From an uncultured Candidatus Saccharibacteria bacterium (lineage in GTDB: Bacteria > Patescibacteriota > Minisyncoccia > Phycocordibacterales > JACOZG01), in assembly GCA_964651115.1 (NCBI GenBank), contig CAZYXJ010000001.1:213077-277076 (forward strand): DNA of 64,000 bases, written 5' to 3'. This document shows, piece after piece, positions 3,498 to 57,932 of this stretch (its first letter is position 1; every line of letters begins with the position of its first letter). The notes below the pieces were generated by a model. The model was not told the DNA's origin. It made no database searches and saw only the letters and a program-made list of their open reading frames with translations. Made by a program: the position numbers and the translations under genes.

Positions 3498-4475
3498 TTA
3501 AGCGGCCGTCACCAAATTGGGCGGCGTCTGGCCCGCCAGCGCCGCCAAAATATTGTCGGCCGCCAAACGAGCCATGTCGTCTCGGGTCTCAAAAGTAGCG
3601 GAGGCAATGTGTGGCGTTAAAACGACGTTAGGTAAATCCTTCAACCCCGCCGCCAGAGTGGGCTCATTTTCATAAACATCCAAGCCCGCACCGGCGATCT
3701 GGCCAGAACGCAAGGCCTCCACCAGCGCGGCCTCGTCAATCACCGGACCACGAGCCGTATTTACGATTACCGCACTCGGCTTCATTAACGCCAGCCGCTC
3801 GCGATTAATCAAATGGCGCGTCTCGGGCGTCAGATTAACGTGGAGCGAAACGTAATCCGCCACCGTCAACACCTCCTCCACCGTAGACTTAAACTCAGCG
3901 CCAAATTCTTTCTCAAATTCTTCGTTCCGCTTAACGTCAAAGTAGACCACCTTCATGCCAAAACCGCGGGACGCAAAGTGAGCCAACTTAGAACCAATCC
4001 GACCGGCGCCGACAATGCCAAGCGTCCGGCCATAAAGATCTGGGGTCAAAAAAATCATTGGCGCCCAGCCGACATACTTGCCGTCGCGGACAAATTGATC
4101 CGCCTCGACGATCCGCCGCCCCACCGCCACCAGAAGAGCCAAGGCATGCTCAGCGACGCTCTGACTGGTCGAGGGCGCGGGCGTGTTGGTGATCATCACG
4201 CCACGCTTTTTGGCCTCAACCAGATCAACGTTATCAAAACCCACCGCGTAGTTAGCAAAAATCTTCGCTGTCGGGACGGCCTCAAAAACTTCGGCATCAA
4301 TCTTGTCGGTCAAGAGCGGTAAAACGGCGTCATACGGCTTAGCCCGAAGCGCGGTTAATAACTCCTCGCGCGAGAGAAGGCCATCCTTAGGGCTCACGTC
4401 CACCTCGTGCCCCTTCTCGCGCAACATCTGTTCTGCCAAATCCGGAATTTTCCGGGTAATGTAAATTTTTCCCAT
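3498..4475 (-). CDS. D-isomer-specific 2-hydroxyacid dehydrogenase (glyoxylate/hydroxypyruvate reductase or D-glycerate dehydrogenase-like)
   Basis: 325 aa with NAD-binding GxGxIG (GIVGAGRIGSKLA) and a catalytic R...E...H arrangement (TPHIASAT). Confidence 0.8.
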   Translation of the reverse strand: MGKIYITRKIPDLAEQMLREKGHEVDVSPKDGLLSREELLTALRAKPYDAVLPLLTDKIDAEVFEAVPTAKIFANYAVGFDNVDLVEAKKRGVMITNTPAPSTSQSVAEHALALLVAVGRRIVEADQFVRDGKYVGWAPMIFLTPDLYGRTLGIVGAGRIGSKLAHFASRGFGMKVVYFDVKRNEEFEKEFGAEFKSTVEEVLTVADYVSLHVNLTPETRHLINRERLALMKPSAVIVNTARGPVIDEAALVEALRSGQIAGAGLDVYENEPTLAAGLKDLPNVVLTPHIASATFETRDDMARLAADNILAALAGQTPPNLVTAA

Positions 4476-4487
4476 TTATTAATTGTA

Positions 4488-5504
4488 TCATAAGGATTCA
4501 ATTTTTCTTCTAAGTTTCCAACCATTGCCGTGATCCAATAAACCCAAATATGATTGAACTGTCTCCGACTTAACTCCTGCTTTATTTATCCGTTTAAACA
4601 TTCGTCGTCTTGTCATAGTCCGCAGAACACGATGTTTTGAAAATTGGACCCACCCTAGAAAATCAACACCAGAGGAAACTCGCTCGAGAAGAATTTTGTT
4701 GGGATGAAACTCTAACTTCAGTTTCTCTTTTAAGAATTCGGCAATTTCGGGTGCGAGCTTGACTAGACGATCTTTATCGCGACCAACAATGACAAAATCG
4801 TCCGCGTAGCGAAGATAATGCCTCGCTTTCAAGCTATGCTTCATAAACTGATCGAGCTCGTTTAGATAAACATTGGCAAAAAGTTGGGAAGTAAGATTAC
4901 CGAGAGGCAGGCCCTGGCCGGGTACGCCCGAATTAAAACTGTAAATTATTTTCTCGATCAGCCAGATAATACCCTGGTCAGGAATCTTTTTCCTCAATAA
5001 ATCGATCAGTATTGCTCGATCGATGCTAGCAAAAAATTTGCGAATGTCACACTTCAAAACCCAAACCATTTTGGTGTTGTTTCGAGAAAGCTTGGCCGTA
5101 ATTAGGGCAAATTTTTTAATTGCTTTGTGAGTACCTTTTCCGTTGCGACAAGAATAGGAGTCAGAAATAAATCTTGGATGGAAAAACCAGTAAAGCCGGC
5201 GATAAACGGCTCGATGTAAAACCCGATCACGCACGGATGCCTTATGGATCACTCGCCGCTTGGGGTCGTTAATGATGAAAACTTTGTAAGCCGAATGATG
5301 GTATGTCTTAGCCACTAAATCCTCGTGAAGTGAAATAATGTTGGCCATCAGGTTTCGTTCAAATTCCTGCACGTCTTTTCGATTCCGTTTCCCTCTCACG
5401 AATTCCTGCCAGGCCGCGAGCAGATTAGCGAGCGAGACGATATTGTCATATTTTATGGTAGGTGCTATCTTGGCCGAAAATGCTACCGGTAAGCCCCCCC
5501 CCAA
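4488..5504 (-). CDS. Diversity-generating retroelement reverse transcriptase
   Basis: 338 aa RT with catalytic YADD (RYADDFVIVG). The N-terminal YDNIVSLANLLAAWQEF...RGKRNRKDV region is typical of DGR RTs. Motif 4 reads LPLGNLTSQ, the [I/L]GxxxSQ variant that distinguishes DGR RTs from group II intron RTs (QGxxxSP). It lies next to a TR/VR pair. The only in-frame start before the conserved region is TTG at 5502-5504, inside a 9-nt G homopolymer. Confidence 0.85.
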   Translation of the reverse strand: MGGGLPVAFSAKIAPTIKYDNIVSLANLLAAWQEFVRGKRNRKDVQEFERNLMANIISLHEDLVAKTYHHSAYKVFIINDPKRRVIHKASVRDRVLHRAVYRRLYWFFHPRFISDSYSCRNGKGTHKAIKKFALITAKLSRNNTKMVWVLKCDIRKFFASIDRAILIDLLRKKIPDQGIIWLIEKIIYSFNSGVPGQGLPLGNLTSQLFANVYLNELDQFMKHSLKARHYLRYADDFVIVGRDKDRLVKLAPEIAEFLKEKLKLEFHPNKILLERVSSGVDFLGWVQFSKHRVLRTMTRRRMFKRINKAGVKSETVQSYLGLLDHGNGWKLRRKIESL

Positions 5505-5513
5505 CCGAAGTTA

Positions 5514-5906
5514 TTGCCTCTTTTGCAAAAGGTGAAGATTGCATACTTATTGTGGTATGAATATTACCAAATTTTGCCAAAAACACATCGACACTCACTC
5601 GGTAAGAAAATTGATACGTTGTGGATCGAGATTATCGAAGCCATTGCGATTGCAAGCTATTTAGGCAAAGGAGAGAAACAACCCTGGGTGAGATTGGCAA
5701 TAAGGAAAACTGATACACTCAAGATATTGCTCTTGGTACTTTGGGAAACTAAATCACTGGATAATAAAAAATATATCGCCCTGTCTTTACCCCTGGAGGA
5801 AATTGGCAAAATGCTTGGCGGTTGGAATGGGCAAATTTTGAGACAATTACAACAAGAACAATTAAAGAAAAACTCTCCCACCAAAGCAGGAGAGAAAATG
5901 AAGTGA
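5514..5906 (+). CDS. Candidate DGR accessory variability determinant (Avd-like four-helix-bundle protein, '23S rRNA intervening sequence protein' family), atypically on the opposite strand
   Basis: 130 aa, basic and helix-rich. The pattern ...LPKTHRHSLGKKIDTLWIEIIEAIAIASYL...LAIRKTDTLKILLLVLWETKSL...LEEIGKMLGGW resembles the fPK-e-yGL--Qi-RAavSIpsNIAEG ... iA-gS--El-tql-la--l-yi ... eigKML-gL pattern of Avd/four-helix-bundle proteins. It ends 2 nt before the TR. Caveats: TTG start, no clear RBS, and opposite orientation to the RT and target. Confidence 0.4.
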   Translation: MPLLQKVKIAYLLWYEYYQILPKTHRHSLGKKIDTLWIEIIEAIAIASYLGKGEKQPWVRLAIRKTDTLKILLLVLWETKSLDNKKYIALSLPLEEIGKMLGGWNGQILRQLQQEQLKKNSPTKAGEKMK

Positions 5907-5907
5907 G

Positions 5908-6029
5908 TTGCGACGAAACGCAAACCAGTCATTGGAGTTACCGTAGTTCTCGAGCCAGTTGAGGTTCGCCTTGCGCCTCGAGTCGTTCCACCAAACGTTG
6001 CACGCCTGGCGATCGCCATCGAAGAAATA
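5908..6029 (-). repeat. DGR template repeat (TR), coding strand = minus
   Basis: The 122-bp stretch at 5908-6029 aligns with 6408-6529 at an offset of exactly 500 bp. All 22 mismatches fall on plus-strand T in this copy (minus-strand A). The first 24 bp are identical (IMH-like invariant 3' end). Translated in the VR frame, the TR reads Asn (AAY) codons where the VR varies. Confidence 0.85.
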
Positions 6030-6388
6030 GTGTAAGGTGTCATCCGAGTCACCATCTCTTGTCGCCAACACAGGACGATTCGAGATCGAATATTATTCGG
6101 CATCTATAATGCCCTAGCACTCTACACCAAGTAGCTTCATTTTTTATTGAAGGATCTGCGTAAATCCTCCGTCGGAAATCGTAATCGCCGACGCTCTCAA
6201 TTTACAGACACTGGTTTCAGTAGCGAGCAACCCTGATCGCCCACATATTCACCTACTCCCGTCTTTAATTTTAGCAAAGAAAAATCCCACACGCGAAGTG
6301 TAGGATTCCATTGTTTACGTTTTGGATTACGTTTGGCAAAAATTGCCGAAGAGCAAAATCCAAAGGATCTGAAAAATCTCCAAGGACC

Positions 6389-7048
6389 TTAGGCCTGAGG
6401 ACGAAGCTTGCGACGAAACGCAAACCAGTCACCGGAGCGACCGCAGACCTCGAGCCAGCAGAGGCGCGCCCCGCGCCCCGAGTCGCCCCACCAAACGCGG
6501 CACGCCAGGCGAACGCCAACGAAGAAACACTCCTTGGTGGCCACCACATACATCGGGTCTAATCCCAGTTCCCGATGAAGAGTGGGATAATGTTCGCCAA
6601 TAGCGAACACTTCTCGTGGGTCAGTGCGCTCGAGTCCGAACTGCTCCGCCCAAGCGATAGCCTTGCTCCAGTTGCCACCCCGTGGGAAGTTGAGAAGGAT
6701 GATTTCCTCCTCTTCTTCCACACCTTCTCCCGGCGGATACTGGTCGCCCACCTTCCGGACGTTGTAGTCCAAAGGAGTGTTGGGACCGGCGGCATTCAGC
6801 GCTTCCGACCACTTGCGTCCTTTGTTGAAGCGAACGCGGATCGTGTGGATGCGAGCGCCCGGTGGCGGGATAAGCGGTAAGCCAATGGTGATCGGTAGCC
6901 CAGCCTCGATTCCATCGAGAACACGACCCAGAGTTCCATCGTCAAGTGCCGTTTGCAGGCGGGCTCGACTCATCTTTTTGTCCCGTACCATTTGAACAAA
7001 CTGTCTTCCCTGACCATCGGTCGCGGTTACAACCTTTTCAGTGGTCAT
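6389..7048 (-). CDS. DGR variable (target) protein, C-type-lectin/FGE-like fold with C-terminal VR; no signal peptide
   Basis: 219 aa. Reverse-complement ATG at 7046-7048 with an AAAGG RBS 7 nt upstream. The C-terminus ...CFFVGVRLACRVWWGDSGRGARLCWLEVCGRSGDWFAFRRKLRPQA contains the VR and ends 17 nt after it. The corresponding TR translation is ...ACNVWWNDSRRKANLNWLENYGNSNDWFAFRRN. Confidence 0.8.
   Translation of the reverse strand: MTTEKVVTATDGQGRQFVQMVRDKKMSRARLQTALDDGTLGRVLDGIEAGLPITIGLPLIPPPGARIHTIRVRFNKGRKWSEALNAAGPNTPLDYNVRKVGDQYPPGEGVEEEEEIILLNFPRGGNWSKAIAWAEQFGLERTDPREVFAIGEHYPTLHRELGLDPMYVVATKECFFVGVRLACRVWWGDSGRGARLCWLEVCGRSGDWFAFRRKLRPQA
6408..6529 (-). repeat. DGR variable repeat (VR) inside the 3' end of the target gene
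   Basis: Partner of the TR. 100/122 identities, with 22/22 differences at TR adenines (A->G, C or T on the coding strand). Confidence 0.85.
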
Positions 7049-15668: not shown

Positions 15669-16109
15669 TTAATGAAGTAGGGCCTTAAGCGCGGCTAGTG
15701 ACTTGGGCCACAGATCCTCAAACATGGGAGCATATTCGTCCGGGACGTCAATCAGCTCCACCACCAGCTCCGTACCGTCGCCGTGCTCGCGAAAAGTATA
15801 ATTTTCGTAAGCGACGTGGCCATCGGGCCAGGGCTTTTCCTCCCCCGCTATCACCTCGCCGTAATGCTCAATCGAGATATATTCGGGCGGCCGACTTTCT
15901 TTAATCCGCGAGAGCATCCCGCCCTCCACGCCCGTCTCAGGATGAGGGCCCAAAAACAACATTTTGCTACCCTCGCTCCAATCACCGCGGTAATACGACC
16001 CCTCGCAAAACACTTTGGTCCACTGACGATAGGTGGCATCCTCGAGCATTGTCTGCCAAACCTTTTCCCGTGGCGCCTCAATCTCAATCGAATATTTTAA
16101 ATTTTTCAT
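15669..16109 (-). CDS. SRPBCC-superfamily protein (AHSA1/activator-of-Hsp90-ATPase-like or polyketide-cyclase-like fold)
   Basis: 146 aa. MKNLKYSIEIEAPREKVWQTMLED...YRQW is characteristic of SRPBCC ligand-binding proteins. Confidence 0.55.
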   Translation of the reverse strand: MKNLKYSIEIEAPREKVWQTMLEDATYRQWTKVFCEGSYYRGDWSEGSKMLFLGPHPETGVEGGMLSRIKESRPPEYISIEHYGEVIAGEEKPWPDGHVAYENYTFREHGDGTELVVELIDVPDEYAPMFEDLWPKSLAALKALLH

Positions 16110-16130
16110 ATATTTAAGTTACGGATAATC

Positions 16131-16439
16131 TCACTTTTTCTCCCAGCGATCTTTATCTCGACTATTCAACTTAGCCATCACCCGATCAAAGCCGCGATCC
16201 ATATCGAGGCCCAGAGAATTAGATAAACAGGTTAAAGTGAAGATAACATCAGCAACCTCTTCCTCAATATCCTGGACATCCTCAGTATCTTTTTTCTTTT
16301 TAGGACCAAAACGGTGATTTATTTCCCGAGCCAACTCCCCAATCTCTTCCGTCAAACGGGCCATTATTTCTAGGGGTTTAAAATAACCGATCTTATATTG
16401 TTGCACCCACCCCTCCACCTCTTGTTGGATTCTTTTCAT
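16131..16439 (-). CDS. MazG-type nucleotide pyrophosphohydrolase
   Basis: 102 aa, ...LTEEIGELAREI...EEVADVIFTLTCLSNSLGLDMD... (EExxE/D motifs of the MazG domain). Confidence 0.6.
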   Translation of the reverse strand: MKRIQQEVEGWVQQYKIGYFKPLEIMARLTEEIGELAREINHRFGPKKKKDTEDVQDIEEEVADVIFTLTCLSNSLGLDMDRGFDRVMAKLNSRDKDRWEKK

Positions 16440-16446
16440 ACGGCCA

Positions 16447-16890
16447 TTATTCCATATATTCTATTTCCAACCCAAGCCGCAGGGCCTGATCATGCTCCCA
16501 GCGTGCACCGACCGAAGACTGCCAATCAGGGAGAAAATACAACTTATGAACCAATTTAGACTCAAATATTGGCAAGTAAAAATCGATTAACAATAAGTCA
16601 TCGTAATGCTCAAACTCGCGTCGACTCTTAATGCGTTGCATCGGTACTTCAAAAGGAACTTGATCAAAAATCTCGATCCCTCTTTGTTGCAAACTAGCGA
16701 TCGTCACTTCGAATCGCTTTAAATTTTTCTCCACCGAACCAGCGCCACCGGTCGAAATCGGACCGCACACCTGGCCAATGGGTGGGGGCATTTTCCGCAA
16801 CACTTGTTCAGCAACAATAAAAAGATCCCGATAAGTCTCCGCTCGGTCTAAGCTGTCATAATGTTCTTGATCCCAATACTTAAGTGACAT
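16447..16890 (-). CDS. DUF4406-like / nucleoside 2-deoxyribosyltransferase-like protein
   Basis: 147 aa. CGPISTGG...FEVTIASLQQRGIEIFDQVPF...LPDWQSSVGARWEHDQALRLGLEI matches the flavodoxin-like DUF4406/NDT fold pattern. Confidence 0.45.
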   Translation of the reverse strand: MSLKYWDQEHYDSLDRAETYRDLFIVAEQVLRKMPPPIGQVCGPISTGGAGSVEKNLKRFEVTIASLQQRGIEIFDQVPFEVPMQRIKSRREFEHYDDLLLIDFYLPIFESKLVHKLYFLPDWQSSVGARWEHDQALRLGLEIEYME

Positions 16891-16903
16891 AAAATTGTAA
16901 ATT

Positions 16904-17305
16904 TTACCTTATTTTCTTAACGACGGTGCCGTAAAAAATTGATGATCTGGTCCTGGAACCACCCGACTCAAAACCCACGAAAAGGCTGGGGTTTTTTATA
17001 ACCTTGTAATAATCTCCTCTGAAATAAAAAGTTTCTTTTAAATTGAATCTTTCAGCATTATAAATCTCTTCAAAAACATAAACTCCCCCTCCACGAGATA
17101 ATGGCTCACCCTCAAGCACCGCCACCTCATCACTCGATTGATACATTTTTTGAGAGTCAAAAAACTCTATATCGCCAAAAGGAATACGATTCTTTACTTC
17201 AGCTAAAAACGTTTTCTTTATATTAACGTCAAATGCCCAACCCAAAGCAAGAATACCAACCGCAATAAAAAACGAAAATTTATGCCTCAAGATAAAATTA
17301 ATCAC
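16904..17305 (-). CDS. Hypothetical protein with N-terminal TM anchor
   Basis: 133-aa ORF, lower GC than the backbone. Confidence 0.35.
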   Translation of the reverse strand: MINFILRHKFSFFIAVGILALGWAFDVNIKKTFLAEVKNRIPFGDIEFFDSQKMYQSSDEVAVLEGEPLSRGGGVYVFEEIYNAERFNLKETFYFRGDYYKVIKNPSLFVGFESGGSRTRSSIFYGTVVKKIR

Positions 17306-17697
17306 AAAAAAGATCGATAATCGGGATAATTGGCCTTAATAATGGATCTCCATGCAGCCGTTTCATTCGTGCTGCCCAAATCACCCTTGGTATAAACTAA
17401 CAGAACGTGTACAGTGGCATTGCTTTTTTTGATAGCAATAATACACCTGTTACCCGAAGCGTGGCGCGACTTACCAGGTCCAGCAATCCGAAATTCCGTT
17501 TTACAAATCTTGACGTCGCCAGCATCACAAATTATCTCCACACGACTATTAACACCGATCAGTGATTCTATACGTTTAAATTGCTCCGCAATAGCATTCC
17601 ATGTAACATCCCAAGCATTTTTATACTTCTTCTTAAATTTTGAGATGTAGTGTCGGTCGGCAAATTTTTCGACAATAACCGCATAACTAGTAGACAT
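17302..17697 (-). CDS. Putative type II toxin (RelE/ParE-superfamily, Gp49/HigB-like) paired with a Panacea-domain antitoxin
   Basis: 131 aa. Its 3' portion ...FRIAGPGKSRHASGNRCIIAIKKSNATVHVLLVYTKGD... resembles the conserved core of Gp49/RelE-fold toxins. It overlaps the upstream HTH-Panacea gene by 11 nt. Confidence 0.45.
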   Translation of the reverse strand: MSTSYAVIVEKFADRHYISKFKKKYKNAWDVTWNAIAEQFKRIESLIGVNSRVEIICDAGDVKICKTEFRIAGPGKSRHASGNRCIIAIKKSNATVHVLLVYTKGDLGSTNETAAWRSIIKANYPDYRSFL

Positions 17698-18370
17698 GGT
17701 CCGGATTTTCCTGTGTGATTAGTTCGTAAGGAATAGCCTCGTCCGGCGCACACAGCTTGTACGGAAGCTGTTCATGAGTAAAATCAACAATTTCCTTAGT
17801 TCTTTTATCTTTCCATTTTGTGGAAATCTTTTTCATAAGTTCAACCTCTTCGCCCTGCAGAAGATCAAGCTTTTGACGGAGGGCTCCTGCACCAATTGAC
17901 ACGAGCATTGCGTCACCCTTGCGGTCTATTGTGATCTTCCCCTCATCTTCAAGTTCGTCAATCGCACGGAAATACGGATCGGGTACCGGACCGTAGGCAC
18001 GACGTAAGTACTGCATTCCGCTCATGCTTTCTAATTTTTCGTAATACCAAGCAAAATCGGCAAGGTAGAGAAGCTTTGCGAGTTTTGTTTTTGGCACCCG
18101 CCCATCAGTTGATGCAGGAAATTTAAGATACGCAATAATCATCTGCTTGTATTTTTCATACTGTGGAGCTGTTACTTTTGAAAGTTCTTCGATTGAAATA
18201 CCATACAATTCGCATAGTTTTTCTGCTTCCCGTAACGTCATTTCGCGTATTCCACGCTCTACGGCCATATAGGATTGGCGCGAGAGTCCAAGTTTTTCGG
18301 CTACTACTAACTGCGAAATACCCCTCTTTGTTCTAAGGGCTTTTATAAATGATGCGTATTTGGTGCTCAT
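17687..18370 (-). CDS. Antitoxin: XRE-family HTH fused to a Panacea (DUF4065/SocA-like) domain
   Basis: N-terminal HTH_XRE (LRTKRGISQLVVAEKLGLSRQSYMAVERG). C-terminal ...KLAKLLYLADFAWYYEKLESMSGMQYLRRAYGPVPDPYFRAIDELEDEGKI... matches the Panacea domain. Start at the internal Met (cat 18368-18370). Confidence 0.7.
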   Translation of the reverse strand: MSTKYASFIKALRTKRGISQLVVAEKLGLSRQSYMAVERGIREMTLREAEKLCELYGISIEELSKVTAPQYEKYKQMIIAYLKFPASTDGRVPKTKLAKLLYLADFAWYYEKLESMSGMQYLRRAYGPVPDPYFRAIDELEDEGKITIDRKGDAMLVSIGAGALRQKLDLLQGEEVELMKKISTKWKDKRTKEIVDFTHEQLPYKLCAPDEAIPYELITQENPDHVY

Positions 18371-18730
18371 GTCTAAAGTGTACATAACCTGTGTATAAAA
18401 TACAAACACAGGGTGTTGATATTCTATACACGCTCGTGGTAAAATTGTTGCACTGGACTAGTCGAACCAGCAGAAAAATAAACTTAATACCTTAGTACTA
18501 TGGCAAAAACCTCAAAAAAGGCCGGTAGGGCTGCATCAAAAGTGTTGCGGAGCAAAAGTGCAGGAAAAAATCCAAAGATAGCTGCCGCTTCTGCATTGCG
18601 ACAGCGTCAAGACCGCCAATAGAGGCTAACTTGAGCAAAAGTTACTGGCTTATAGAGAGCTCGCGGAGAAAGAGAATTGATTGGGTTACAGCCATTCACT
18701 AACAGCCCTAGAAAAGTATGCCTCGCTCAC

Positions 18731-18758
18731 ACAAAACCGCACAATGTGCGGTTTTGTG
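18731..18758. terminator. Perfect palindrome (acaaaaccgcaca-a-tgtgcggttttgt) immediately 3' of the R-M gene; candidate bidirectional terminator
   Basis: 13-bp arms read from the sequence. The T-tract is modest. Confidence 0.4.
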
Positions 18759-21700
18759 TTATAAGGCCACCTCATCAATTTCTCTCATAATTTTGTCTGT
18801 TTCCACCAAAGCAACAATAATTTTTTGATAGTGTTCAATATCGCCATTTGAAAGCATGCGACCCTTGCGGTCTTTCAACCACTTCTGCGCGGGTTGGTAG
18901 CCGCCGATGTAGAACGACCATGCGATCTCGGGGACGTTGCCAAAATACTGCGTTGCGTTGATGTATACACTGTCGCCCTTGCGAGTGATTTTCTCTACCT
19001 TGTTCGTGCCGACCTCGGGGTAGGTAGTGATGGGGGTGCGTACCGCCGCTGATTCGAGCAGGTGAAGTTCCCGGAGTTGTTTACCGAGCGCCGCGAGTGC
19101 GGCGAACTGCGCCTTATCTTTCGGATATGGGACGCGGGGGAAATCTATTCTAAGAAACTCCTTGTACTTCTCACGGTAGTTTGGTGAGTGCAGAACGGCG
19201 TAGACATAATCAAAGATATCCTCGGGCGTTGGTTCTTTTCCGACCAAAGAGGCAATCTGCTTCACAATGTCGCGGTTGAGGTTCGGTACACGAGTGCCGT
19301 CCCCCGCGTGTAAATAAAGTGGGACGTTCATGGCGTTTGTGGCTGTCGTTCCAGACAAGAATATTGCTTCGGAAATGGTATTTGTAACAAAGACGTGGTT
19401 GTAGTCAGCATCGCGGACGCTTTTTGTGACCAAAAGTCCGAGATTAGATCCTTGTAGGTAATGCTTCATTATTTTGTCTACCGGACGCCAAACTAGCGAT
19501 GAGTGGTAAAAGATCAGACGATCATCAAAAGGACGATATGCGATCTCTTTTACAAAGTTCGATAATTCATTTTCTTTCCGCAAAGCATCTCGAGCTTTCA
19601 ACGCATCCCAACCTTTTTTATCGCTGATACCAACCTCGGCGCACAATGCCCTTTGTGTGTTTGTTGTTGAGTTACGGAAACGTTCCGCGTTGGAAGCAAG
19701 ATTCTGGGTGTCACTGCCAATAACAAAGGCGTCTCTGGCTGTAACCACCCCATTCCCGTTTTCAATAAAGAGGTCTTTGATAGAAATGTTTTTTATGTAT
19801 TGAGCTTTTGTTTTCTCATCTCGCACTGTCCATTCGTAGTTTTGCGACTTGGGAGCGAGCTCGTGCCAGTGCATGGAGCCAAGTTCCATTTCATTGAGAC
19901 ACTCGAACTTCGTTCGCTTCGTTCCGAAACAGTCGGCGCGATAGACGTTGGCGAGAGAGCCCGAGCGTTTTCCTTTGCGGCGTACGCCAATAAGAATCGA
20001 GACGCCCTGTTTGATAGCGAACACGTTTTCATCTTTGCCACCATCGGGGGCTTTTTCTTTCTTGTTGGAATTTCCGTGGAGGTCGAGAACGTAAATCTCG
20101 CTGAACGTCTCCATGAGGTGATAGCGCATACCCCGAAACGTTGGGTTGTCGATGTACCCGTGTGCAGTAATCATTCCGACAATACCCTCACCGGTTTGTT
20201 CGATAAGACTCTCGGCGAAGCGAATGAACTTCACGTAGTCATCGTTTATCCATTTGCTGTTGCGTTCTTTGAGCTTTTGCGAAGTACCCGGCTCAACCTT
20301 GTAGACATCGTGCCCTGTGTACTCCTTGTTACTTGACTCTCCTGCGTAGGGGGGATTTCCTATCACAATCATTATCGGTGTGTCGTTCTTGATGCGAGCA
20401 GCGGCACGACTCTCCTCACTAATACTCTGTGCGAGACCGAGCATGCCAAAGAGCGAATCGTCAGGGCGCTCCGCTTTCTCAAGAGAGTTCGTGAGATACA
20501 CGCCGATACGGTCTTTGAAATCTTTTGCACCGGACTCGCGGAGGGTGGCGGCAAGTTTGAGGTGAGCGATGGTATAGGGCGCCATCATAAGCTCGAAGCC
20601 GTGGAGACGAGGGAGGAGGTCTTCATTCACGTAGCCACTGAATCGTCCTTCCTGTCCGGCGAATGTGCGACGGATGAGACGTATCGTCTCGTTAAGGAAG
20701 GTGCCAGTGCCAGTTGCTGGATCGAGCACCTGCACTTTGTGAATGGTGTCCTTCACTTTCTTGCCCTGCACCATTCGCGTGATATCTATCTTCTTCGTGT
20801 CGGCGAGACCTTGGGGTAGGTCGAAGTCGCGTTTGAGAATGGCATCAACCGAGCGCACGATGAAGTGCACGACGGCGGGTGGTGTGTAATACGCACCAAG
20901 CTTCTTTCGCTCTACTGGGTCGTATGCTTTGAGAAAGTCCTCGTAAAAGTGGATGACAGGGTCGGGCGCCGCCTGTTCTGCGCCCCATAGGTCTTGCTTG
21001 TAAATCTGTTGCATGAGTGCGCGGACATTAGCGTTGCCGAACACTTTGCAGAGGTCGTCGACGATTGGCTTCAATCGGTCGTCAAAGTCAGCACCGGCGA
21101 TGTGGTCGAAGAAGCGACGCAGGAGAGGGTTTGAGTGCGGGATAAGCTCACGCGCTTCTGCTCGTGTGAAGTCTTTGGGGGATTCATCGTGATACCTCGC
21201 GACGAAAAGACCGTACACGAGCGTCTGCGCATACATGTCGGTGAAGTCGTCGAGCGAAAGATCGTGGATGAGTTGCGATTTGAACGCCTCGTAGATGTCG
21301 AGGAGAGGTTTATTCTTGGGACTATCCGTTTTAAGAAAGCGCAGCAGATTGGCGCGGAGGCGCTTGCCGTTCTCTCCCATGATTTCGGCGAGGCGGTTCG
21401 CACGGCGCACCGGCTCCGCCGCATCTTCGAGGAAGGCTCGAATTGTGGTTTCTAAAAGGGCATATGAGTTTCCGTCCGGTGAAAGTGTCTCAAGGTCACT
21501 TATTACGATGGGGTCGCAATACGCTCCGCCATGCTTGTAGAAGCGAAACTCGAGATAATTCGTAAGGATGAGGTTAGCATAGCCAAAGTAACGTTTGAGT
21601 TGTTCCCCCTTGACGATATCGTCGAGGTTCTCCCCGAGACGCTTGGTCTCGACATAGCCGACTGGAAATCCGCCCTTGATGAGGGCAAAGTCGGGGGCAC

Positions 21701-45337: not shown

Positions 45338-46081
45338 CTATTCTCCTAAATATGCCTCAATTACTTCTGGCTTTTTTAAAACTTCTTCTGGTAAACCTTG
45401 GGCCAAGAGCTGGCCGGCGTCCATCACGATTAAGTGATCACACAACTCGCGGATTAAATCCATGTTGTGCTCGACTAAAATAATAGTTTTACCTGCCGCC
45501 CGGAGCTCTTTAATTACGCTCACCACTGTTTTAATCATCTCAGGAAAGAGTCCGGCAAATGGTTCATCAAGAAAAATGATGGAGGCCGCGTTGTCACTAG
45601 CCGAGACCATCGCGAGCACGCGCGCGATCTCCAAGAGCTTGCGCTGACCATAAGAGAGATTAGCGGCTAACTCCCCGCGCTTCTCCCACAGACCAACTTT
45701 TTTAAGGGCCGCCTCAGCCTGAGCCACATGAAAATCTTTGTGCTTCTCAAACAGTGAGGCAAAAGTGTTCCGCTCTGTTAGGACCACCAAGATGTTATCG
45801 AGCACCGGCATTTGCTCAAAGAGTCGTACGTCTTGGAAGGTGCGGGTTACGCCGTACTCGGCTGACTCATAAGCGCGCAAGCGCGAGAGCTCAACGCCAG
45901 AAATTACGATCGCCCCCGCCTCAAACGGGAACATGCCAGTGAGAGTATTGATAAGAGTCGATTTGCCCGAGCCGTTGGGACCGATCACGCCAGTGATCTT
46001 GCCGGCAGCAAATTCAACCGAGAGCCGGTCTACCGCCTTAACCCCGTCAAATTGTTTGGAGAGACCGTGGGTTTTAAGCAT
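45338..46081 (-). CDS. livG: Branched-chain amino acid ABC transporter ATP-binding protein (LivG-like)
   Basis: Walker A GPNGSGKST, LivG-typical RTFQ motif, LSYGQRKLLEIAR signature. Confidence 0.8.
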   Translation of the reverse strand: MLKTHGLSKQFDGVKAVDRLSVEFAAGKITGVIGPNGSGKSTLINTLTGMFPFEAGAIVISGVELSRLRAYESAEYGVTRTFQDVRLFEQMPVLDNILVVLTERNTFASLFEKHKDFHVAQAEAALKKVGLWEKRGELAANLSYGQRKLLEIARVLAMVSASDNAASIIFLDEPFAGLFPEMIKTVVSVIKELRAAGKTIILVEHNMDLIRELCDHLIVMDAGQLLAQGLPEEVLKKPEVIEAYLGE

Positions 46082-46120
46082 CGTAGCCTAATTAAATAGG
46101 ATGTTGCCCCGACCGTCAAA

Positions 46121-46846
46121 TTACCGTTTTGGTCTAATTGAATAGCAAACCCAGGTGTAACCCAGGGCATTATTGTAGCGCCTGCCGACAACCTCACAAC
46201 CACAATCGCTAACTAAGTTCTCCAGCACCACAAAATCAGCATTGGGATCTTTAGTATTTGCGCTTTGCAGGTTAGAGTGAGTTAAGAGTATGTAGCCGCC
46301 TGGATTAATATGGTCTCTGGCCTCCTCAAATAGTCTTCGGTGCAGGACCATCCCCGGATCATAGAGCGCTGCGGTGATGCTTGTTTTTTCTGTGGGGACA
46401 GCGTTCGTAATGGGCAGATTAGCAATTATCCGATCATATTTTTTATTCCCCATTGCTGAGAAGAGATCACTTACGAATACCGATATTGTGTCTTCTAGAC
46501 CATTTAGTTGAACATTATGTTTGCTGCAAGCTACCGCCTCCGGAATAAGATCCACAGCATCAACGTGTTTGGCCCCTTTAATAACTGCCGCAATTGATTC
46601 GACACCAGTACCGCAACCGATGTCAGCAACATCCAAACCGCTCAAATCACCAAGAGCTTCATATAATGTGCGAGAGGACACGGAGTGATCAGCGGCCGGC
46701 GGAAAAATGCCAGGGAAGACATCGATTAAGATAATTTTGCCATCGATTTCGACATTCACCCGATAAGTTCCTTGGGCTTTCTTGCGCTCCAGTTCTTTGA
46801 CCATTCCCTGGGTCTGCGGGGAATCAGCTTGTGGTTTGATTTCCAT
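46121..46846 (-). CDS. SAM-dependent methyltransferase, MTS-domain type (RsmC/PrmA-like) with a degenerate motif IV
   Basis: DIGCGTG motif I. IANLPI is found where NPPF/NPPY is expected. Start overlaps the stop of the upstream SBP gene by 1 nt. Confidence 0.6.
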   Translation of the reverse strand: MEIKPQADSPQTQGMVKELERKKAQGTYRVNVEIDGKIILIDVFPGIFPPAADHSVSSRTLYEALGDLSGLDVADIGCGTGVESIAAVIKGAKHVDAVDLIPEAVACSKHNVQLNGLEDTISVFVSDLFSAMGNKKYDRIIANLPITNAVPTEKTSITAALYDPGMVLHRRLFEEARDHINPGGYILLTHSNLQSANTKDPNADFVVLENLVSDCGCEVVGRRYNNALGYTWVCYSIRPKR

Positions 46847-48006
46847 TACTCAGCCTTCACGAATTTACCCTCACGAACAGTCTTCATTTCAAAGGCTTCG
46901 ACTGGAGTCTCAACAAAACCCTTGTCATCAAACTCAATGAGAGGAATAGATACACTGCCCTCAAACCTCACCTTCTCTAAACCTGATCGAACATTCTCTC
47001 GATTAATTTCTTGGCCAGACTCAACAAGGCCCTTCATCACCTCCGCCAGAACCAAAACTGCGTTGTAAGAGGTAACAGCCGATGGCGACAATGGCTTTAG
47101 ATTAAATCTAGCTTCGTACGCCTTCTCAAACTGATCATAACCATGAGACTGGCTTGGCGTTGCAAAATATAGACGGTTTTGCATCAGCTCTGGGCATTCG
47201 CTCAAAGCTTTTGGCGTTCCGGCAGACTCGGTGGAGAGAAGAGGTAAAGGCGCTCCAAGTTCCTTAGACTGAGCCAAAAAGACACATTCCAACTCGGCAA
47301 AAGCGCCAAAGAAGGCGTCTGGGGATTTGGCCTTAGCCTTGCTAATCAAAGTTCGATAATCAGTAACGGCATAGTCCGTACCCATTTCTTTAGCCACCAC
47401 AGTAATACCAAATTCTGGCGCATTTTTTTCAACCAAGTTAGCAGTAAAAAGCCAGAAGCTAAAGTTTGCTGGCTGGACAATGGCAATCTTTTTCCAGCCC
47501 TTATTTTGAGCAAACTTGAGTAATTCTCTAATCCCCACTTCGTTCTTGGGCCAAGTAACAAAGAAATAAGGTGAGTTAACTTTAGACTCAATGTAGGTTG
47601 AGACATTGGGGCTCACCACTGGAGTTTTGTCAGCTGAAGAGATGGCAGCCACTACCTCGCCGTTACCGTCCCACTGAGGACCAACAATAGCGACTACATT
47701 ATCAACTGCAATTAACTTCTTGGCCGCTGCCGCTCCGCGTTTAAGATCAAGACCAGGAGCGTCTTCTGAAACCATTTCTATTTTCTTGCCACCCACCCCA
47801 CCTTGAGCATTTACTTCTTCCACCGCTAGCAGAGCCCCGTTCTTTTCCTCTGCACCAATTTCAGCGCCTAAGCCAGATTGCCCAGACATCTGCCCGATCT
47901 TGATAACCTCCGCCGAGACTGAATTAGGATTTTTGCTCTTGCTCGCCCAAACTCCCAGCCCCACCACCACCAGAATTATGACGATCCAAATTATTGTTTT
48001 TTTCAT
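46846..48006 (-). CDS. PBP1/LivK-type substrate-binding protein, membrane-anchored (paralog 2)
   Basis: MKKTIIWIVIILVVVGLGVWASK anchor, Leu/Ile/Val-binding-protein fold signatures. Confidence 0.7.
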   Translation of the reverse strand: MKKTIIWIVIILVVVGLGVWASKSKNPNSVSAEVIKIGQMSGQSGLGAEIGAEEKNGALLAVEEVNAQGGVGGKKIEMVSEDAPGLDLKRGAAAAKKLIAVDNVVAIVGPQWDGNGEVVAAISSADKTPVVSPNVSTYIESKVNSPYFFVTWPKNEVGIRELLKFAQNKGWKKIAIVQPANFSFWLFTANLVEKNAPEFGITVVAKEMGTDYAVTDYRTLISKAKAKSPDAFFGAFAELECVFLAQSKELGAPLPLLSTESAGTPKALSECPELMQNRLYFATPSQSHGYDQFEKAYEARFNLKPLSPSAVTSYNAVLVLAEVMKGLVESGQEINRENVRSGLEKVRFEGSVSIPLIEFDDKGFVETPVEAFEMKTVREGKFVKAE

Positions 48007-48009
48007 AGT

Positions 48010-48732
48010 TTATTTAATTCCCACAACAACAGCTTCCATCATTTTGCGATAAACCGTTTCCACACCCTTAAAACCAATCGAAGTCATAAACGTTTTTGCC
48101 TCCCCTTCAAAAAACACCAGATCTTCTTGTTCGTCACGTTCCATGTGTGCAAGCCACTCTTTTTTGTAATCCGACCGACCAATGGTGTCGTAAATGTCAT
48201 ATTTGGCAATTTGTTCTCTATAAATCTCTTGTCGCTTTTCTGGATCATCATGGGCATACTTATCACCATTAACAAAAATGCCACCCGGCTTTAAGACCCT
48301 GAAGATTTCTGAAATTATCTGTCGACGAAAGTTTTGTTCAAAATTATGGATCACGAAACCAGAAGCTACGGCATCAAATGATGAGTCTGGTATATTCTTC
48401 AAATATTCTCCGACCTCACTTTCAATTACCGTCACCCGATTGGAAGCTTGCCAACGATTAAGATTATCCTGGATTTGATCAATCATTTTTTTCTCATTAT
48501 CAACAGCCACAACGCGTACACGAGAATCTGAGTCAAGTAGAAACTTGGTAGTAATCCCGGTCCCACATCCGACCTCCATAGTTACAATACTCCCCACCTG
48601 AGAATCCTTGAAGTGCTCGCGGATAGCTTGCCCAACCGCCTGCTGAAGTTCATCATAGTGCGGGTAAGCCAACTTCAAAAGCTCATACTCTTCGCCCAGG
48701 ATATTATTAAATCTTTGATCGTTAGAAGTCAT
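48010..48732 (-). CDS. Class I SAM-dependent methyltransferase (Methyltransf_25/12-like)
   Basis: VGCGTGITTKFLL motif I; 240 aa. Confidence 0.65.
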   Translation of the reverse strand: MTSNDQRFNNILGEEYELLKLAYPHYDELQQAVGQAIREHFKDSQVGSIVTMEVGCGTGITTKFLLDSDSRVRVVAVDNEKKMIDQIQDNLNRWQASNRVTVIESEVGEYLKNIPDSSFDAVASGFVIHNFEQNFRRQIISEIFRVLKPGGIFVNGDKYAHDDPEKRQEIYREQIAKYDIYDTIGRSDYKKEWLAHMERDEQEDLVFFEGEAKTFMTSIGFKGVETVYRKMMEAVVVGIK

Positions 48733-48737
48733 TTTAT

Positions 48738-49847
48738 TTATTTCAGAGGAATAATTCTATTTTTCTCAACTTTAAAGAACAGCACTGGTTTATGAGCATT
48801 GCCGTCATCATCAAAAGTCATCGTGCCAGATGCGCCAACAAACTCTTTAATATTACTGAGAGATTTAGCAACTAGCTCTGGATCAGTCGACCCGACATCG
48901 CTGATCGCCTTGATGTATAGGTTAAATGCATCATAAGCCTGATTAGCCGGAAAACCAACCTCTCGCTGATATTTAGATTGGAATTTTTTATTAAACGCAC
49001 TATCAACTGTATCAGTAGAAACAAAGATCGTTCCTTCCAAAGAACCTTGGGCTTGATCGATCGTAGGCTGAAACAACAATACAGAGAAAAATGGGATCGT
49101 CATCCCTAAATCTCGCAGCCGCTGGGCAGAAACGGCCGTTTGTCCATAATTAGTAAAAACAACGGCCTCTGGATTAGACGTTTTTATCTTCGTTGCTTCG
49201 GTTCGCAAATCTTTGTTGTCGACGGTAGGCAGTTGAATTGAGACTACGGCTCCACCAAGCTCTTCAAATTTTTTCTTTACAAAATTAGCCTGGTCCATCT
49301 CCCACTCTTGCTGAGAGCCAAATATAGCAATCTTTCGAAATCCTCTTTGCTTATAGAGATACTCGGCCAAGGTAAAACTATCAAATTTGTTAGGCGGAAA
49401 AACATCAAAAGTTCTTGGACTCATTTCAGCAAATTTTTCTGACCCGACTGACGGAGAAATAATTACTACGTTTGCCTTTTCTGCTACAGGAGCCAACACC
49501 GTCGCTGTGGGAGTGAAATCCGGACCAATTATCAAACGCACATCACGATTTATTAGGTTATAAAGCGCCGATAATCCACCTTTGGGATTATCGCCAAGAT
49601 TATCCTCATAAACCATTTCAACCGGTCGGCCCAATACGCCTCCAGCTTGATTAACTTCTCCAACAGCCAGATCAATACCTCGTTTGGCATTCTCACCGGT
49701 ATCAGCAAAGTTACCGGTTAAATTGAGGATTGCGCCAATCTTAATTGGGCCATCAGTATTATTTGACATCTGCCCATCACGATAAAACCACGCCCCCAAC
49801 CCAACCAGCACTAGAATTATGACAACCCAAATAACGATTTTTTTCAT
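48738..49847 (-). CDS. PBP1/LivK-type substrate-binding protein, membrane-anchored (paralog 3)
   Basis: MKKIVIWVVIILVLVGLGAWF anchor; ...IKIGAILNLTGNFADTGENAKRGIDLAVGEVNQAGGVLGRPVEMVYEDN... is the classic LivJ/K N-lobe. Confidence 0.75.
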   Translation of the reverse strand: MKKIVIWVVIILVLVGLGAWFYRDGQMSNNTDGPIKIGAILNLTGNFADTGENAKRGIDLAVGEVNQAGGVLGRPVEMVYEDNLGDNPKGGLSALYNLINRDVRLIIGPDFTPTATVLAPVAEKANVVIISPSVGSEKFAEMSPRTFDVFPPNKFDSFTLAEYLYKQRGFRKIAIFGSQQEWEMDQANFVKKKFEELGGAVVSIQLPTVDNKDLRTEATKIKTSNPEAVVFTNYGQTAVSAQRLRDLGMTIPFFSVLLFQPTIDQAQGSLEGTIFVSTDTVDSAFNKKFQSKYQREVGFPANQAYDAFNLYIKAISDVGSTDPELVAKSLSNIKEFVGASGTMTFDDDGNAHKPVLFFKVEKNRIIPLK

Positions 49848-49850
49848 ATT

Positions 49851-50930
49851 TTATTCTAGATCTGTTAGCTGACCACCTTTTACCGCCATAATTTTAGTTT
49901 CTGGCTTGCGATTACCGGTGCCGTCAAACTCGATCTTGCCGCCCACACCCGCAAAGTTTGCAGCCTTAAGATTTTTGACCCAAGTGGCCTGATTAGCGTC
50001 ATAGGTTGCGACCAGCAAATTAAACGCATCGTAGCCGATATCAGACAAAAAGCCAGGATCAGCATTAAAGCGAGCTTTGTACTTAGCTTTAAACTCATCG
50101 GCCACGTCCGACTTTACCGTTCCGACAATCGTGCCATCAAGAACCTTCATATCACCCAAGATACGCTGGTAATCAGAGAAGCCAGATTGGAAGTTGGTGT
50201 CAAAAAAGAATTGCGGATTATTTTTCTTAATCTTCAAAAATTCTTGCATAAAGCGAGCGCCCTGCTGCGGCACAATAAAGAGACCGATCGTACTGGAGTT
50301 GCTAGCGGCCACCTTTAAAGCGTGGGGTCGGAGATCCTTTTCGTCAGCCTGGATAACAAAATCAGTAGTTGTACCCTGGAAGCCTTGTTTAAAACTTTCT
50401 ACAAAGCGGACCATGGCATCAATATTGCTGTAGACAATCGCCATCTCTTTAACACCCTTCTCTCTCATATACACTCCGTACTCATACTCAGAAGCGATAC
50501 TGTTGGGCAAAATACCAAGCACGTTATCATCAGCCGGCTCTCGTCCCTGCTCGCCCATTTGGATAACCGGTAGATCGGTTGTCGTTACCGCACCATAAAT
50601 CGCATCGATCGTCGGCGTAGAAACATTGATCAGCGCCTGGATCTGATTGCTCGTAATCAATTTTTGATAAGCACTGAGTCCCTTGCCACCATTAAAGCCA
50701 TCATCCTCCATAAAAACATTTATCTTAGCATCAGGATGCGCTTGATTATATTCCTCACTAGCCAAAACAACGCCGTTGCGGATGTTCTCGCCGACGGCCG
50801 CGTAATCTCCGCTAAGAATGGCGATGAGTCCTAGATTAAAACTTTTAGCTTGCTGATTGTTGCCAGACCAAACAACCGCCCCGATCACAATAATGGCAAT
50901 GATAACTACCCAAATAATTATTTTTTTCAT
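49851..50930 (-). CDS. PBP1/LivK-type substrate-binding protein, membrane-anchored (paralog 4)
   Basis: MKKIIIWVVIIAIIVIGAVVW anchor; PBP1 fold. Confidence 0.7.
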   Translation of the reverse strand: MKKIIIWVVIIAIIVIGAVVWSGNNQQAKSFNLGLIAILSGDYAAVGENIRNGVVLASEEYNQAHPDAKINVFMEDDGFNGGKGLSAYQKLITSNQIQALINVSTPTIDAIYGAVTTTDLPVIQMGEQGREPADDNVLGILPNSIASEYEYGVYMREKGVKEMAIVYSNIDAMVRFVESFKQGFQGTTTDFVIQADEKDLRPHALKVAASNSSTIGLFIVPQQGARFMQEFLKIKKNNPQFFFDTNFQSGFSDYQRILGDMKVLDGTIVGTVKSDVADEFKAKYKARFNADPGFLSDIGYDAFNLLVATYDANQATWVKNLKAANFAGVGGKIEFDGTGNRKPETKIMAVKGGQLTDLE

Positions 50931-50935
50931 ATTGG

Positions 50936-52057
50936 TTACTTTAAAGTTACAAAATCTTGACCATTAAATGTTTGTAAAATGGGCAATTTATTAACTGGAT
51001 AATTTAGCTCGGGATAGTCTATCCTACCCGATGCCCCAACAAAATCAATTTGCCGGAGCCCAGTGAGAATAGATTCGGAATCAGTTTTACCGACCTCCTC
51101 GATAGCATATTTGACTGCATACACGGCATCATAGGCCGAATCAGCCTCTGCCAATGGGGATTTGTCAAATTTCTGTTGATATTTTTCTACAAAATCTGTC
51201 TTGGGCAAAGCCGGACGAAAAATAGAAATATCTTTTAACGAACCTGCAGAAATTTTTTTGTCGTAATAAGCGTTAGCAAAATTGGCATGCGCCAACACTG
51301 GCGCAGCAATACCAAGCTCCGTTCGTCTCTTAGAAAATGTTACAACATCATTATAGTTTAGAGCACCAAGAACAACATCGGCACCAGACGCCTTAATGAG
51401 AGACAACTCTCGCTGCATGTCATTATTATCAAATTTTGGCAGCACGACCTCCTTTACCAATACTCCGCCGGAATTTTCCAGCGCCTTCTTAAACATCTCG
51501 CCGTGAGCTTTTCCCCAATAATTGTTGGCATAAATAATAACTGCCTTGGGTTGTCGAAATTTTGATAAATATTTTTCGACAACTCCCCGATTACTAGAAA
51601 TTGCCATGTAAGTCGTAAAGTGATACGAGCTGGTTGACTCGATCATATCTTGGGACGCAGACGGCGTAATCAAAATCCGTTTTTGTGAATCAATCACGGG
51701 CATAACTGCGCCGGCCAAAAAGTCCCAGGTAGCGCCGATAATTACTGGGGCGTTATCGACAGAGATTAATTTGTTAACCACCGAAACAGCCTGTTTAGCT
51801 TCGGTGCCGTCATCCTCATAGATCACTTCGAGCGGTCGCCCCAAAACTCCTCCATCATTATTTATTTCTTCCACGGCAAGCGAGATCGCATTTTTCTGAT
51901 GCTCGCCGTAAATAGCTGCGATGCCCGTCATCGGTAAATCGGCTCCAATCTTAATCGGCTCACTGCTGGTTGGAGCGCTATCTCTTCGGCCAATTAGAAC
52001 TAAAATGAGGACTAAAACTACTACAATTACCACCCAAATTATGGCTTTTTTAGACAT
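50936..52057 (-). CDS. PBP1/LivK-type substrate-binding protein, membrane-anchored (paralog 5)
   Basis: MSKKAIIWVVIVVVLVLILVLIG anchor; PBP1 fold. Confidence 0.7.
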   Translation of the reverse strand: MSKKAIIWVVIVVVLVLILVLIGRRDSAPTSSEPIKIGADLPMTGIAAIYGEHQKNAISLAVEEINNDGGVLGRPLEVIYEDDGTEAKQAVSVVNKLISVDNAPVIIGATWDFLAGAVMPVIDSQKRILITPSASQDMIESTSSYHFTTYMAISSNRGVVEKYLSKFRQPKAVIIYANNYWGKAHGEMFKKALENSGGVLVKEVVLPKFDNNDMQRELSLIKASGADVVLGALNYNDVVTFSKRRTELGIAAPVLAHANFANAYYDKKISAGSLKDISIFRPALPKTDFVEKYQQKFDKSPLAEADSAYDAVYAVKYAIEEVGKTDSESILTGLRQIDFVGASGRIDYPELNYPVNKLPILQTFNGQDFVTLK

Positions 52058-52123
52058 GACTCTAGTCTAGCAAGCTCGGGTGAACTGTAAAGCAAAAGTT
52101 GACTATACTGGTTTTATTGCCCG

Positions 52124-53239: not shown

Positions 53240-53378
53240 AATAGCATTATACAGATGAGCTATTTTATTGTATATAGATGAGGCTCGGTTGGACCGTTTC
53301 TCAAAAATATGCTTATTTATAGCGCTGGAACGGTTTTTATAATTTGACTAAAAATTAGTCACAAGCTATACTCAGCTG

Positions 53379-54203: not shown

Positions 54204-54212
54204 TCTGGGGAT

Positions 54213-55091: not shown

Positions 55092-55093
55092 GG

Positions 55094-55972: not shown

Positions 55973-56028
55973 CCAAACTATAACAGCAACCTGAGCTGAC
56001 TACAAATCAGGTCCGGAATAAAACAAGC

Positions 56029-57135: not shown

Positions 57136-57137
57136 AT

Positions 57138-57893: not shown

Positions 57894-57932
57894 CCAAACT
57901 ATACCTTATTCCTTGTATTGTTTCCAACGGTA

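Follow-up and report, generated by a model that had tools for sequence, protein, structure and literature searches.

The stretch of DNA analyzed here, referred to as the window, comprises 64,000 nt of contig CAZYXJ010000001.1 (positions 213,077 to 277,076, forward strand; assembly GCA_964651115.1) from an uncultured Candidatus Saccharibacteria bacterium, and all coordinates below are counted within it. Between 4488 and 7048, it carries what is very probably a complete chromosomal diversity-generating retroelement (DGR) of the type found in the Candidate Phyla Radiation (CPR), composed of a target gene ending in a variable repeat (VR), a template repeat (TR), an inverted avd (accessory variability determinant) gene, and a reverse transcriptase (RT) gene, together with an RNA mechanism that we infer below. 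For comparison, a genome scan with an alignment of the target yielded 19 loci, all from metagenome-assembled genomes (MAGs) of Patescibacteria (CPR), and a metagenome scan with an alignment of the RT contributed 80 loci of at least 564 relatives at 52-62% identity. The comparison set comprised 86 related loci.

The repeat pair and the proteins of the cassette

The two repeats were defined by alignment and lie on the minus strand, with the TR at 5908-6029 (122 nt, 27 adenines) and the VR at 6408-6529. They align without gaps at an offset of 500, with 100 identities and 22 mismatches over 122 nt, and the homology breaks off abruptly at both ends. Read on the minus strand, the VR has another base at 22 of the 27 TR adenines (G at 14, T at 5, and C at 3) and all other bases are unaltered; for all 22 mismatches to fall on A by chance, the hypergeometric probability is P = 8.6e-20. 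The original prediction had described a TR/VR pair with every one of its 22 substitutions at a template adenine, and a recount by gapless comparison returned the same positions, with no substitution at a non-A template position within 5908-6029. Its reading of the locus as a DGR agrees with the RT, the Avd homologue, and the C-type-lectin-like target that all adjoin the repeat, and with the same adenine-only pattern in 50 related loci (together with the window, 51 pairs and 899 of 925 mismatches at A). The repeats were thus read correctly, but the avd gene on the opposite strand was overlooked.

The VR lies in frame at the 3' end of the open reading frame (ORF) 6389-7048 on the minus strand, where it forms codons 174-213 of 219 and ends 16 nt before the stop codon, and the variable columns of the family alignment are the TR adenine codons. 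All 22 altered adenines occupy codon position 1 or 2. The asparagine codons (AAY) that had been pointed out at the variable sites of the TR account for seven of the 15 altered codons, and a final N-versus-K difference quoted along with them lies one base beyond the repeat. Despite the changes at 22 of 27 adenines, the VR contains neither a stop codon nor a frameshift. No second VR was found in the 64-kb window when both strands were scanned with the TR adenines ignored.

As predicted, TR and VR share their final 24 nt (3' end; minus strand TGACTGGTTTGCGTTTCGTCGCAA), after which homology stops. Within them, none of the three adenines is altered, as against 22 of the 24 adenines located 5' of them. 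The accompanying proposal of an element resembling the initiation of mutagenic homing (IMH) sequence holds with regards to this identical end, but not with regards to its composition, as the G+C content is 50% and therefore not GC-rich, and a hairpin is neither significant nor conserved; the fold of the VR 3' region, suggested as a check for a GC-rich IMH plus hairpin, gave a z-score of -1.8. Being identical in both repeats, the invariant end cannot by itself separate donor from recipient. In relatives, adenine changes extend to the very last adenines of the TR (L010, L016, L025, L029, L036, L043, L065, L084, and L086), so that the unmutated 24 nt reflect few adenines plus chance or selection and not a fixed boundary. 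The TR ends in a conserved CGCAA regardless of the target family, and directly past it the repeats diverge, the TR continuing with CUCUCUUCAUUU and the VR typically with GUAG or GUAA, which holds the stop codon.

At the VR end, we found neither a GC-rich IMH differing from its template counterpart IMH* nor a GC-rich hairpin or cruciform, and a TTGCG/CGCAA hairpin inside the invariant 3' end is not conserved in relatives. According to Wu et al. 2018 (PMC5758913), hairpins accompany no more than 34% of DGRs, so their lack has no bearing on DGR membership; the same survey records the case of an IMH equal to IMH*, as seen here. What follows directly 3' of the VR is a strand-specific tract of CTTNG/CCTNAGG-like repeats (6330-6407, minus strand), the first 16 nt of which encode the last residues of the target, LRPQA. 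Across 48 loci, CTTN[GA] occurs 4.4 times per 90 nt, compared to 1.04 times in shuffles and 0.44 times in the reverse complement, with a spacing of mostly 7-8 nt. The repeats CTTTG, CTTGG, and CTTAG are common to loci with unrelated targets (L008-L099), and the tract also follows target homologues without a nearby DGR. It may be a recipient mark for retrohoming or a part of the 3' untranslated region of the target.

The target gene (6389-7048, minus strand) encodes a variable protein of 219 aa whose N-terminus forms a three-helix segment and whose C-terminus forms a C-type-lectin-like domain, and the VR falls on the C-terminal strands of the lectin fold. No sequence match was found in Pfam, NCBIfam, or PDB, a fold search against BFVD returned no match below E 0.26, and sequence inspection revealed no obvious signal peptide or membrane segment. 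Compared to known variable proteins with a C-type-lectin fold (Mtd, TvpA 2Y3C, and archaeal/CPR CLec variants), the target is very small and without a sequence match to the Pfam lectin or FGE families; its VR consensus differs (C-VWW--S-R-A-L-WV--FG----WFAFRK), and the three-helix N-terminus is unique to it.

The longest ORF of the RT (4488-5504, minus strand) encodes 338 aa from a TTG, the true start being uncertain, and matches RVT_1 with E 9.8e-24. Its motifs LPLGNLTSQ and YADD are invariant across the clade and fit the DGR motifs [I/L]GxxxSQ and YxDD. The nearest solved relative is the RT of the Bordetella phage (bRT, 8ub7; E 5.8e-43), with group II and retron RTs at about 1e-17. The avd gene (5514-5906, plus strand; 130 aa, TTG start), which was recognized through NCBIfam DivGenRetAVD and Pfam bAvd, lies on the strand opposite to the RT, divergent from it and convergent with the DGR RNA. 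The ORFs of RT and avd nearly abut, with a gap of 9 nt in the window (5504-5514) and projected offsets of -31 to +30 nt in relatives; as essentially no intergenic DNA separates the two back-to-back genes, each promoter must lie inside the other gene. In the window and in five of the six genome relatives with a complete avd, the first ATG, GTG, or TTG of avd is a TTG, which occupies one shared position in the alignment (L-P-[LV]-L...). At the end of the window's avd, an insertion of 1 nt (an extra A) shifts the frame (…GEKMK, then stop) and preserves the nucleotide motif. This change of the reading frame with the motif kept suggests selection on the RNA or DNA sequence.

A conserved RNA domain upstream of the template repeat

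In the window, the interval between target and TR spans 378 nt without a credible ORF, and across 49 loci this spacer measures 271-414 nt and holds no consistent ORF. The 3' two-thirds of the spacer between VR and TR are strongly conserved in their nucleotides. RNAalifold, covariation counts, and nhmmer delimited a conserved structured domain of approximately 230 nt at 6030-6259 (minus strand), immediately 5' of the TR, which is made up of helices 1-6, an A-rich strand, a linker, and a helix 8 that encloses helices 9-13. From 37 full-length regions, RNAalifold derived 49 pairs, 43 of them with compensatory changes. In the specified structure, 88.7% of the cells are paired, compared to 73% in column shuffles and 41-54% when the partners are slid by 1-3 columns, and cells with double changes number 433 as against 137 in shuffles. 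Many conserved G-U pairs identify the RNA strand as the one in the sense of the TR.

An nhmmer profile detected the domain in 57 of the 58 related loci that offer enough space for it, in each case immediately 5' of the TR. The window holds one copy (6256-6028, minus strand), a full-length match with E 8e-43. The single-sequence minimum free energy of the 396-nt RNA (z -2.0) recovers some of the helices only and was not used as evidence.

Two of the helices connect the domain to the flanks of the TR. Helix 8 consists of 12 pairs between 6116-6127 and 6030-6041 (minus strand, the latter being its 3' strand) and is proposed as the stop of cDNA synthesis. Compensatory changes were found in 10 of its 12 pairs, and 95.5% of its cells are paired. 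In the window, its end abuts the start of the TR/VR homology; across loci, the 5' boundary of the TR deviates from the domain end by no more than ±7 nt in 45 of 47 cases, with a mode of 0. Helix 7 is formed by the A-rich strand AAAAUGAAG (6135-6143, minus strand; consensus AAAUGAAGA; inverted repeat I7), the proposed primer strand, and by CUUCAUUUU (5895-5903, minus strand; consensus UCUUCAUUU), the proposed template-side strand, which is antisense to the last avd codons. The latter motif starts 3 nt (CUC) past the TR in the consensus and 4 nt (CUCA, 5904-5907) past it in the window, the difference resulting from a C-A mismatch. Regarding covariation, 87.9% of the helix 7 cells are paired, compared to 44-55% in slid controls, and 17 cells carry double changes as against 4.2 in shuffles, a value that none of 500 shuffles reached. 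Between the A-rich strand and helix 8 lies the near-invariant 6-nt linker UACUUG (6128-6133, minus strand), recognized by its conservation, and the unpaired A-rich segment after the stem-loop of helix 9 is near-invariant as well.

Two further pairings were considered and not adopted. A local CUUC/GAAG hairpin in place of helix 7 is conserved, yet shows no covariation beyond that of shuffles. An extension of helix 7 through the linker to the terminal CAA of the TR could form as UUG/CAA; it is not claimed, since no compensating change is seen in loci with CGAAA.

Past helix 7, the terminator scan identified a 9-bp hairpin, CUCUCCUGC-UUUG-GUGGGAGAG, followed by UUUUUCUUU (5864-5894, minus strand; hairpin 5873-5894, U run 5864-5872). 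In a per-sequence search, 45 of 52 loci had a G+C-rich hairpin with a U run 0-32 nt (typically 10-15 nt) past the TR, differing in its inner stem between loci. It looks like the intrinsic terminator of the DGR RNA and may also be the equivalent of the Avd-binding stem-loop. Hairpin and motif are antisense to the last approximately 11 codons of avd, so that the Avd tail NSPTKAGEK (…NSPxKAGEK) and the stop codon are encoded on the other strand.

On the 5' side, a sequence resembling an extended -10 promoter element, TGcTAAAAT (6268-6276, minus strand), is the candidate promoter of the template RNA, and TG-N-TAnAAT recurs at a constant distance from the RNA domain across the aligned loci. From its position, the template RNA is predicted to start at approximately 6259-6262. 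Upstream of this element, a terminator-like hairpin of 12 pairs followed by a T run (6281-6309, minus strand), detected by the terminator scan and with equivalents in relatives, would end the target transcript.

No match to the window RNA was found in Rfam 15, even at E <= 10. The domain 5' of the TR, its pairing with the TR 3' flank, and the CTTNG tract are not mentioned in PMC5758913 or PMC8144416, and an earlier CPR description (Paul et al. 2017) is possible. Structured RNAs beside bacterial RT genes were previously collected as the motifs RT-1 to RT-19, some of which were suggested to be parts of DGRs (Weinberg et al. 2017); among these motifs, RT-10 is a structure between TR and brt in BPP-1, and RT-7 is deposited as RF03028. 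In one relative (L021:1775-1828), the hairpin of helices 4-6 (CCAGAGU...GGUCAnGGC...AGnGUG) resembles the first hairpin of RT-7 with E 0.001, a match of 22.8 bits as compared to a gathering score of 116.8 and with 143 of 191 model positions skipped. No match to an RT motif was found in 11 further relatives, and the RNA does not reach the gathering score of RT-7 or any other RT motif. The resemblance hints that RT-7 could be the equivalent RNA of another DGR lineage.

A proposed permuted arrangement of the phage RNA and its alternatives

In the DGR ribonucleoprotein (RNP) from Bordetella phage, the primer strand at spacer (Sp) positions 47-56, with priming from A56, pairs with the 3' end of the TR; 2 nt further on, Sp 59-70 pairs with a segment 5' of the TR, forming the 'cPRT stop', and this strand runs into a short stem-loop followed by adenosines (bioRxiv 10.1101/2023.10.23.563531). 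The Avd-binding stem-loop is located directly 3' of the TR (bioRxiv 10.1101/2023.10.23.563531). Along the window RNA, helices 1-6 are followed by the A-rich strand, the 6-nt linker, the 5' strand of helix 8, the helix 9 stem-loop, and an A-rich single strand; the second half consists of helices 10-13, the 3' strand of helix 8, the TR, 4 nt (3 in the consensus), the 3' strand of helix 7, and the hairpin with the RNA end. Both RNAs thereby share one cyclic order, namely a strand of the stop helix, the TR, the template strand, a stem-loop, the primer strand, a linker, the second strand of the stop helix, a stem-loop, and adenosines. The cycle is opened between the post-TR stem-loop and the primer strand in the window and after Sp in the phage.

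Beyond this RNA order, the element and that of phage BPP-1 (mtd-avd-TR-brt) have in common an adenine-specific transfer from TR to VR, homologous RT and Avd, and a lectin-fold target with a C-terminal VR. The phage RNA runs from an avd segment through the TR to Sp, with structure and priming 3' of the TR, whereas here the conserved domain, including the Sp-like part, lies 5' of the TR and the RNA would end past the post-TR stem-loop. In the window, an internal domain closes the stop helix, which in the phage is formed by the two RNA ends; the linker measures 6 nt instead of 2 nt, and the primer duplex has its template strand a few nt beyond the TR/VR homology rather than inside IMH*. Furthermore, avd is inverted between TR and RT, the CTTNG tract takes the place of a GC-rich IMH or cruciform after the VR, and the element is chromosomal, unlike the phage-borne one of BPP-1.

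This comparison suggests that the window RNA is a circularly permuted, self-priming DGR RNA with its Sp-like part placed before the TR. Because the cyclic order is kept, it could work like the phage RNA without being built the same way. For DGR RNAs of CPR architecture B3 in general, we consider the chances evenly balanced that they are circular permutations of the Bordetella phage RNA, with a priming and stop module 5' of the TR, a primer that pairs with a TR-independent motif, an end hairpin that overlaps the avd stop, and a CTTNG tract, instead of IMH plus cruciform, marking the recipient.

In such a mechanism, a separate RNA of approximately 395 nt would be transcribed from the extended -10 promoter at about 6270 to the hairpin and U run antisense to the avd 3' end, and would be bound by RT and Avd. 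Pairing of 6135-6143 with 5895-5903 would supply the template:primer duplex. As adenine changes reach the last adenines of the TR, the starting point of the cDNA has to lie further 3', at the helix 7 edge, and synthesis would thus begin in the few nt between the helix 7 duplex and the terminal CGCAA of the TR. The enzyme would then copy the TR, misincorporate opposite adenines, and halt at helix 8, after which the cDNA would replace the VR and recode the target's lectin-like surface at up to 18 codons.

Several points weigh against this reconstruction. The RT has no clear promoter and no canonical start codon in the window, and both family matches of Avd remain below their cut-offs (NCBIfam DivGenRetAVD, full length, E 1.6e-14, 54 bits with a cut-off of 80 bits; Pfam bAvd, E 1.6e-9, 38.6 bits with a cut-off of 40 bits). 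Helix 7 of the window has nine pairs beside a C-A mismatch, and three of the nine positions show no compensatory change. Activity, RNA ends, and priming site are all deduced from sequence. In a published survey, moreover, canonical positions (40 nt upstream and 100 nt downstream of the TR) are given for the Avd-binding stem-loops and stop duplexes that CPR DGRs possess, which fits the post-TR hairpin; an upstream priming strand is neither addressed nor predicted there.

A different reading of a genuine DGR is one in which the RNA keeps the canonical order, a priming Sp-like element lies downstream of the TR in the antisense of avd, transcription reads through from TR to RT, and the upstream domain has another role, such as docking of RT/Avd, stabilizing the RNA, or regulating the transcript of the target or the TR. 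In the only biochemically studied DGR, the primer strand is indeed located 3' of the TR (bioRxiv 10.1101/2023.10.23.563531); the phage RNP study also reported CPR DGR stem-loops just downstream of the TR, which match the hairpin at 5873-5894, and read-through could express the RT, which lies on the same strand as the TR and for which no promoter was found. However, the hairpin with its direct U run after the TR in 45 of 52 loci resembles an RNA 3' end, and the conservation further downstream is accounted for by avd coding. Covariation links the upstream A-rich strand to the post-TR motif, and from primer strand and linker to stop helix, stem-loop, and A-rich segment, the cyclic order is that of the phage RNA. 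We therefore hold the canonical order to be possible but rather unlikely. Also unlikely, and to a slightly greater degree, is an inactive relic whose VR was diversified formerly and whose retrohoming has ended. Loss does occur in the family, as DGR-less target homologues are common and one locus (L009) retains the 5' half of the RNA domain, and decay could be read from the TTG starts of the RT and avd ORFs and the C-A mismatch beside helix 7. The protein cluster of the target has a single member. Against this stand the intactness of all ORFs and of the catalytic and DGR motifs of the RT, the full-length match of the RNA domain (E 8e-43) with its promoter and terminator elements, and a VR that is still free of stops and frameshifts with 22 of 27 adenines differing; the TTG start of avd is common to most relatives.

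A direct repeat with an exact 500-bp offset could likewise stem from ordinary segmental duplication, or from a gene fragment diverging through ordinary mutation. Yet every one of the 22 differences is confined to a single base of one copy (P ~9e-20), RT and avd adjoin the repeat, and 50 related loci have the same pattern. The adenine specificity already refutes this explanation, and the probability left to it is practically nil.

Relatives of the element and its significance

With the circularly permuted, self-priming RNA as the favored reading of the domain, the element as a whole belongs to a known class. In architecture B3, 'TR-(avd)-RT', a reverse-strand avd lies between TR and RT, as in 90% of a CPR set (Wu et al. 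2018, NAR 46:11, PMC5758913), and the window has exactly this arrangement, with avd at 5514-5906 on the plus strand and all relatives of the genome scan in Patescibacteria MAGs. Gene order, orientation, and host group are the same as in those elements, and the gene content shows no difference. Ultra-small CPR bacteria are among the most DGR-enriched taxa (PMC8144416), and a DGR in a CPR genome is expected; the element corresponds to the cellular, Patescibacteria-restricted DGR clade 2, whose targets typically lack recognizable domains (Roux et al. 2021, PMC8144416), and the target of the window is likewise without a recognizable domain or membrane segment.

Among the 19 genome loci of the target family, seven share the layout of the window, each with an adenine-only TR/VR pair, and in 70 of 70 related loci an inverted avd stands back-to-back with the RT. 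No homologue of the 219-aa target was detectable in the 80 metagenome RT loci, from which it follows that the RT clade serves several target families. Conversely, seven orphan targets (L002, L003, L005, L007, L013, L014, and L015; at ~4001-4670 or 1061-1705) have 4 kb downstream without RT, avd, or template RNA; such homologues have either lost their DGR or are served in trans. Approximately 100 nt past an orphan target, L009:4746-4846 keeps the 5' half of the RNA domain alone (profile positions 1-99), which looks like the remnant of a decayed DGR.

The pattern AAAWGAAGNTACTTGGTR gave at least 120 matches in IMG/VR, of which only L157 and L191 carry the RT/avd; the others are chance hits of an AT-rich 18-mer. 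This result makes the clade essentially cellular. The IMG/VR sequence L157 (2797 nt) contains a whole cassette, made up of a target homologue (37% identity), the RNA domain, avd, and an RT divided between the two contig ends; this points either to a circular molecule or to an assembly wrap-around. In a further relative, a metagenome locus, a LOOT RNA (RF03000, 69.5 bits, above the gathering score) is located at L033:5018-5153, approximately 1.7 kb downstream of the RT.

In the window, the cassette is flanked by housekeeping genes for a class II fructose-bisphosphate aldolase, a 2-hydroxyacid dehydrogenase, and L25, and is therefore chromosomal. Its G+C content is approximately 45%, compared to approximately 54% in the flanks. 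Over the whole window, G+C dips to 0.41-0.48 at 4001-6000, 16001-20000, and 46001-64000 and amounts to about 0.53-0.56 elsewhere; the dip at 4001-6000 coincides with the portion of the cassette that holds RT and avd.

Among natural protein diversifiers, DGRs are the most extreme; they are under engineering for targeted mutagenesis, and to our knowledge, all mechanistic knowledge of them comes from one phage element. In CPR DGRs, the inverted avd sits exactly where the phage element has its priming spacer, so that their priming had been an open point. The comparative data give a concrete, testable model of an RNA of approximately 395 nt in which ends and helices are defined and a candidate for the primer strand is named. 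While the DGR itself is unsurprising, the conserved 5' RNA domain and the permuted topology seem to be new. If the model is true, the cis-priming core of a DGR tolerates circular permutation, and priming would be uncoupled from the template sequence, so that the template could be changed while the priming site stays as it is, which would help in reprogramming.

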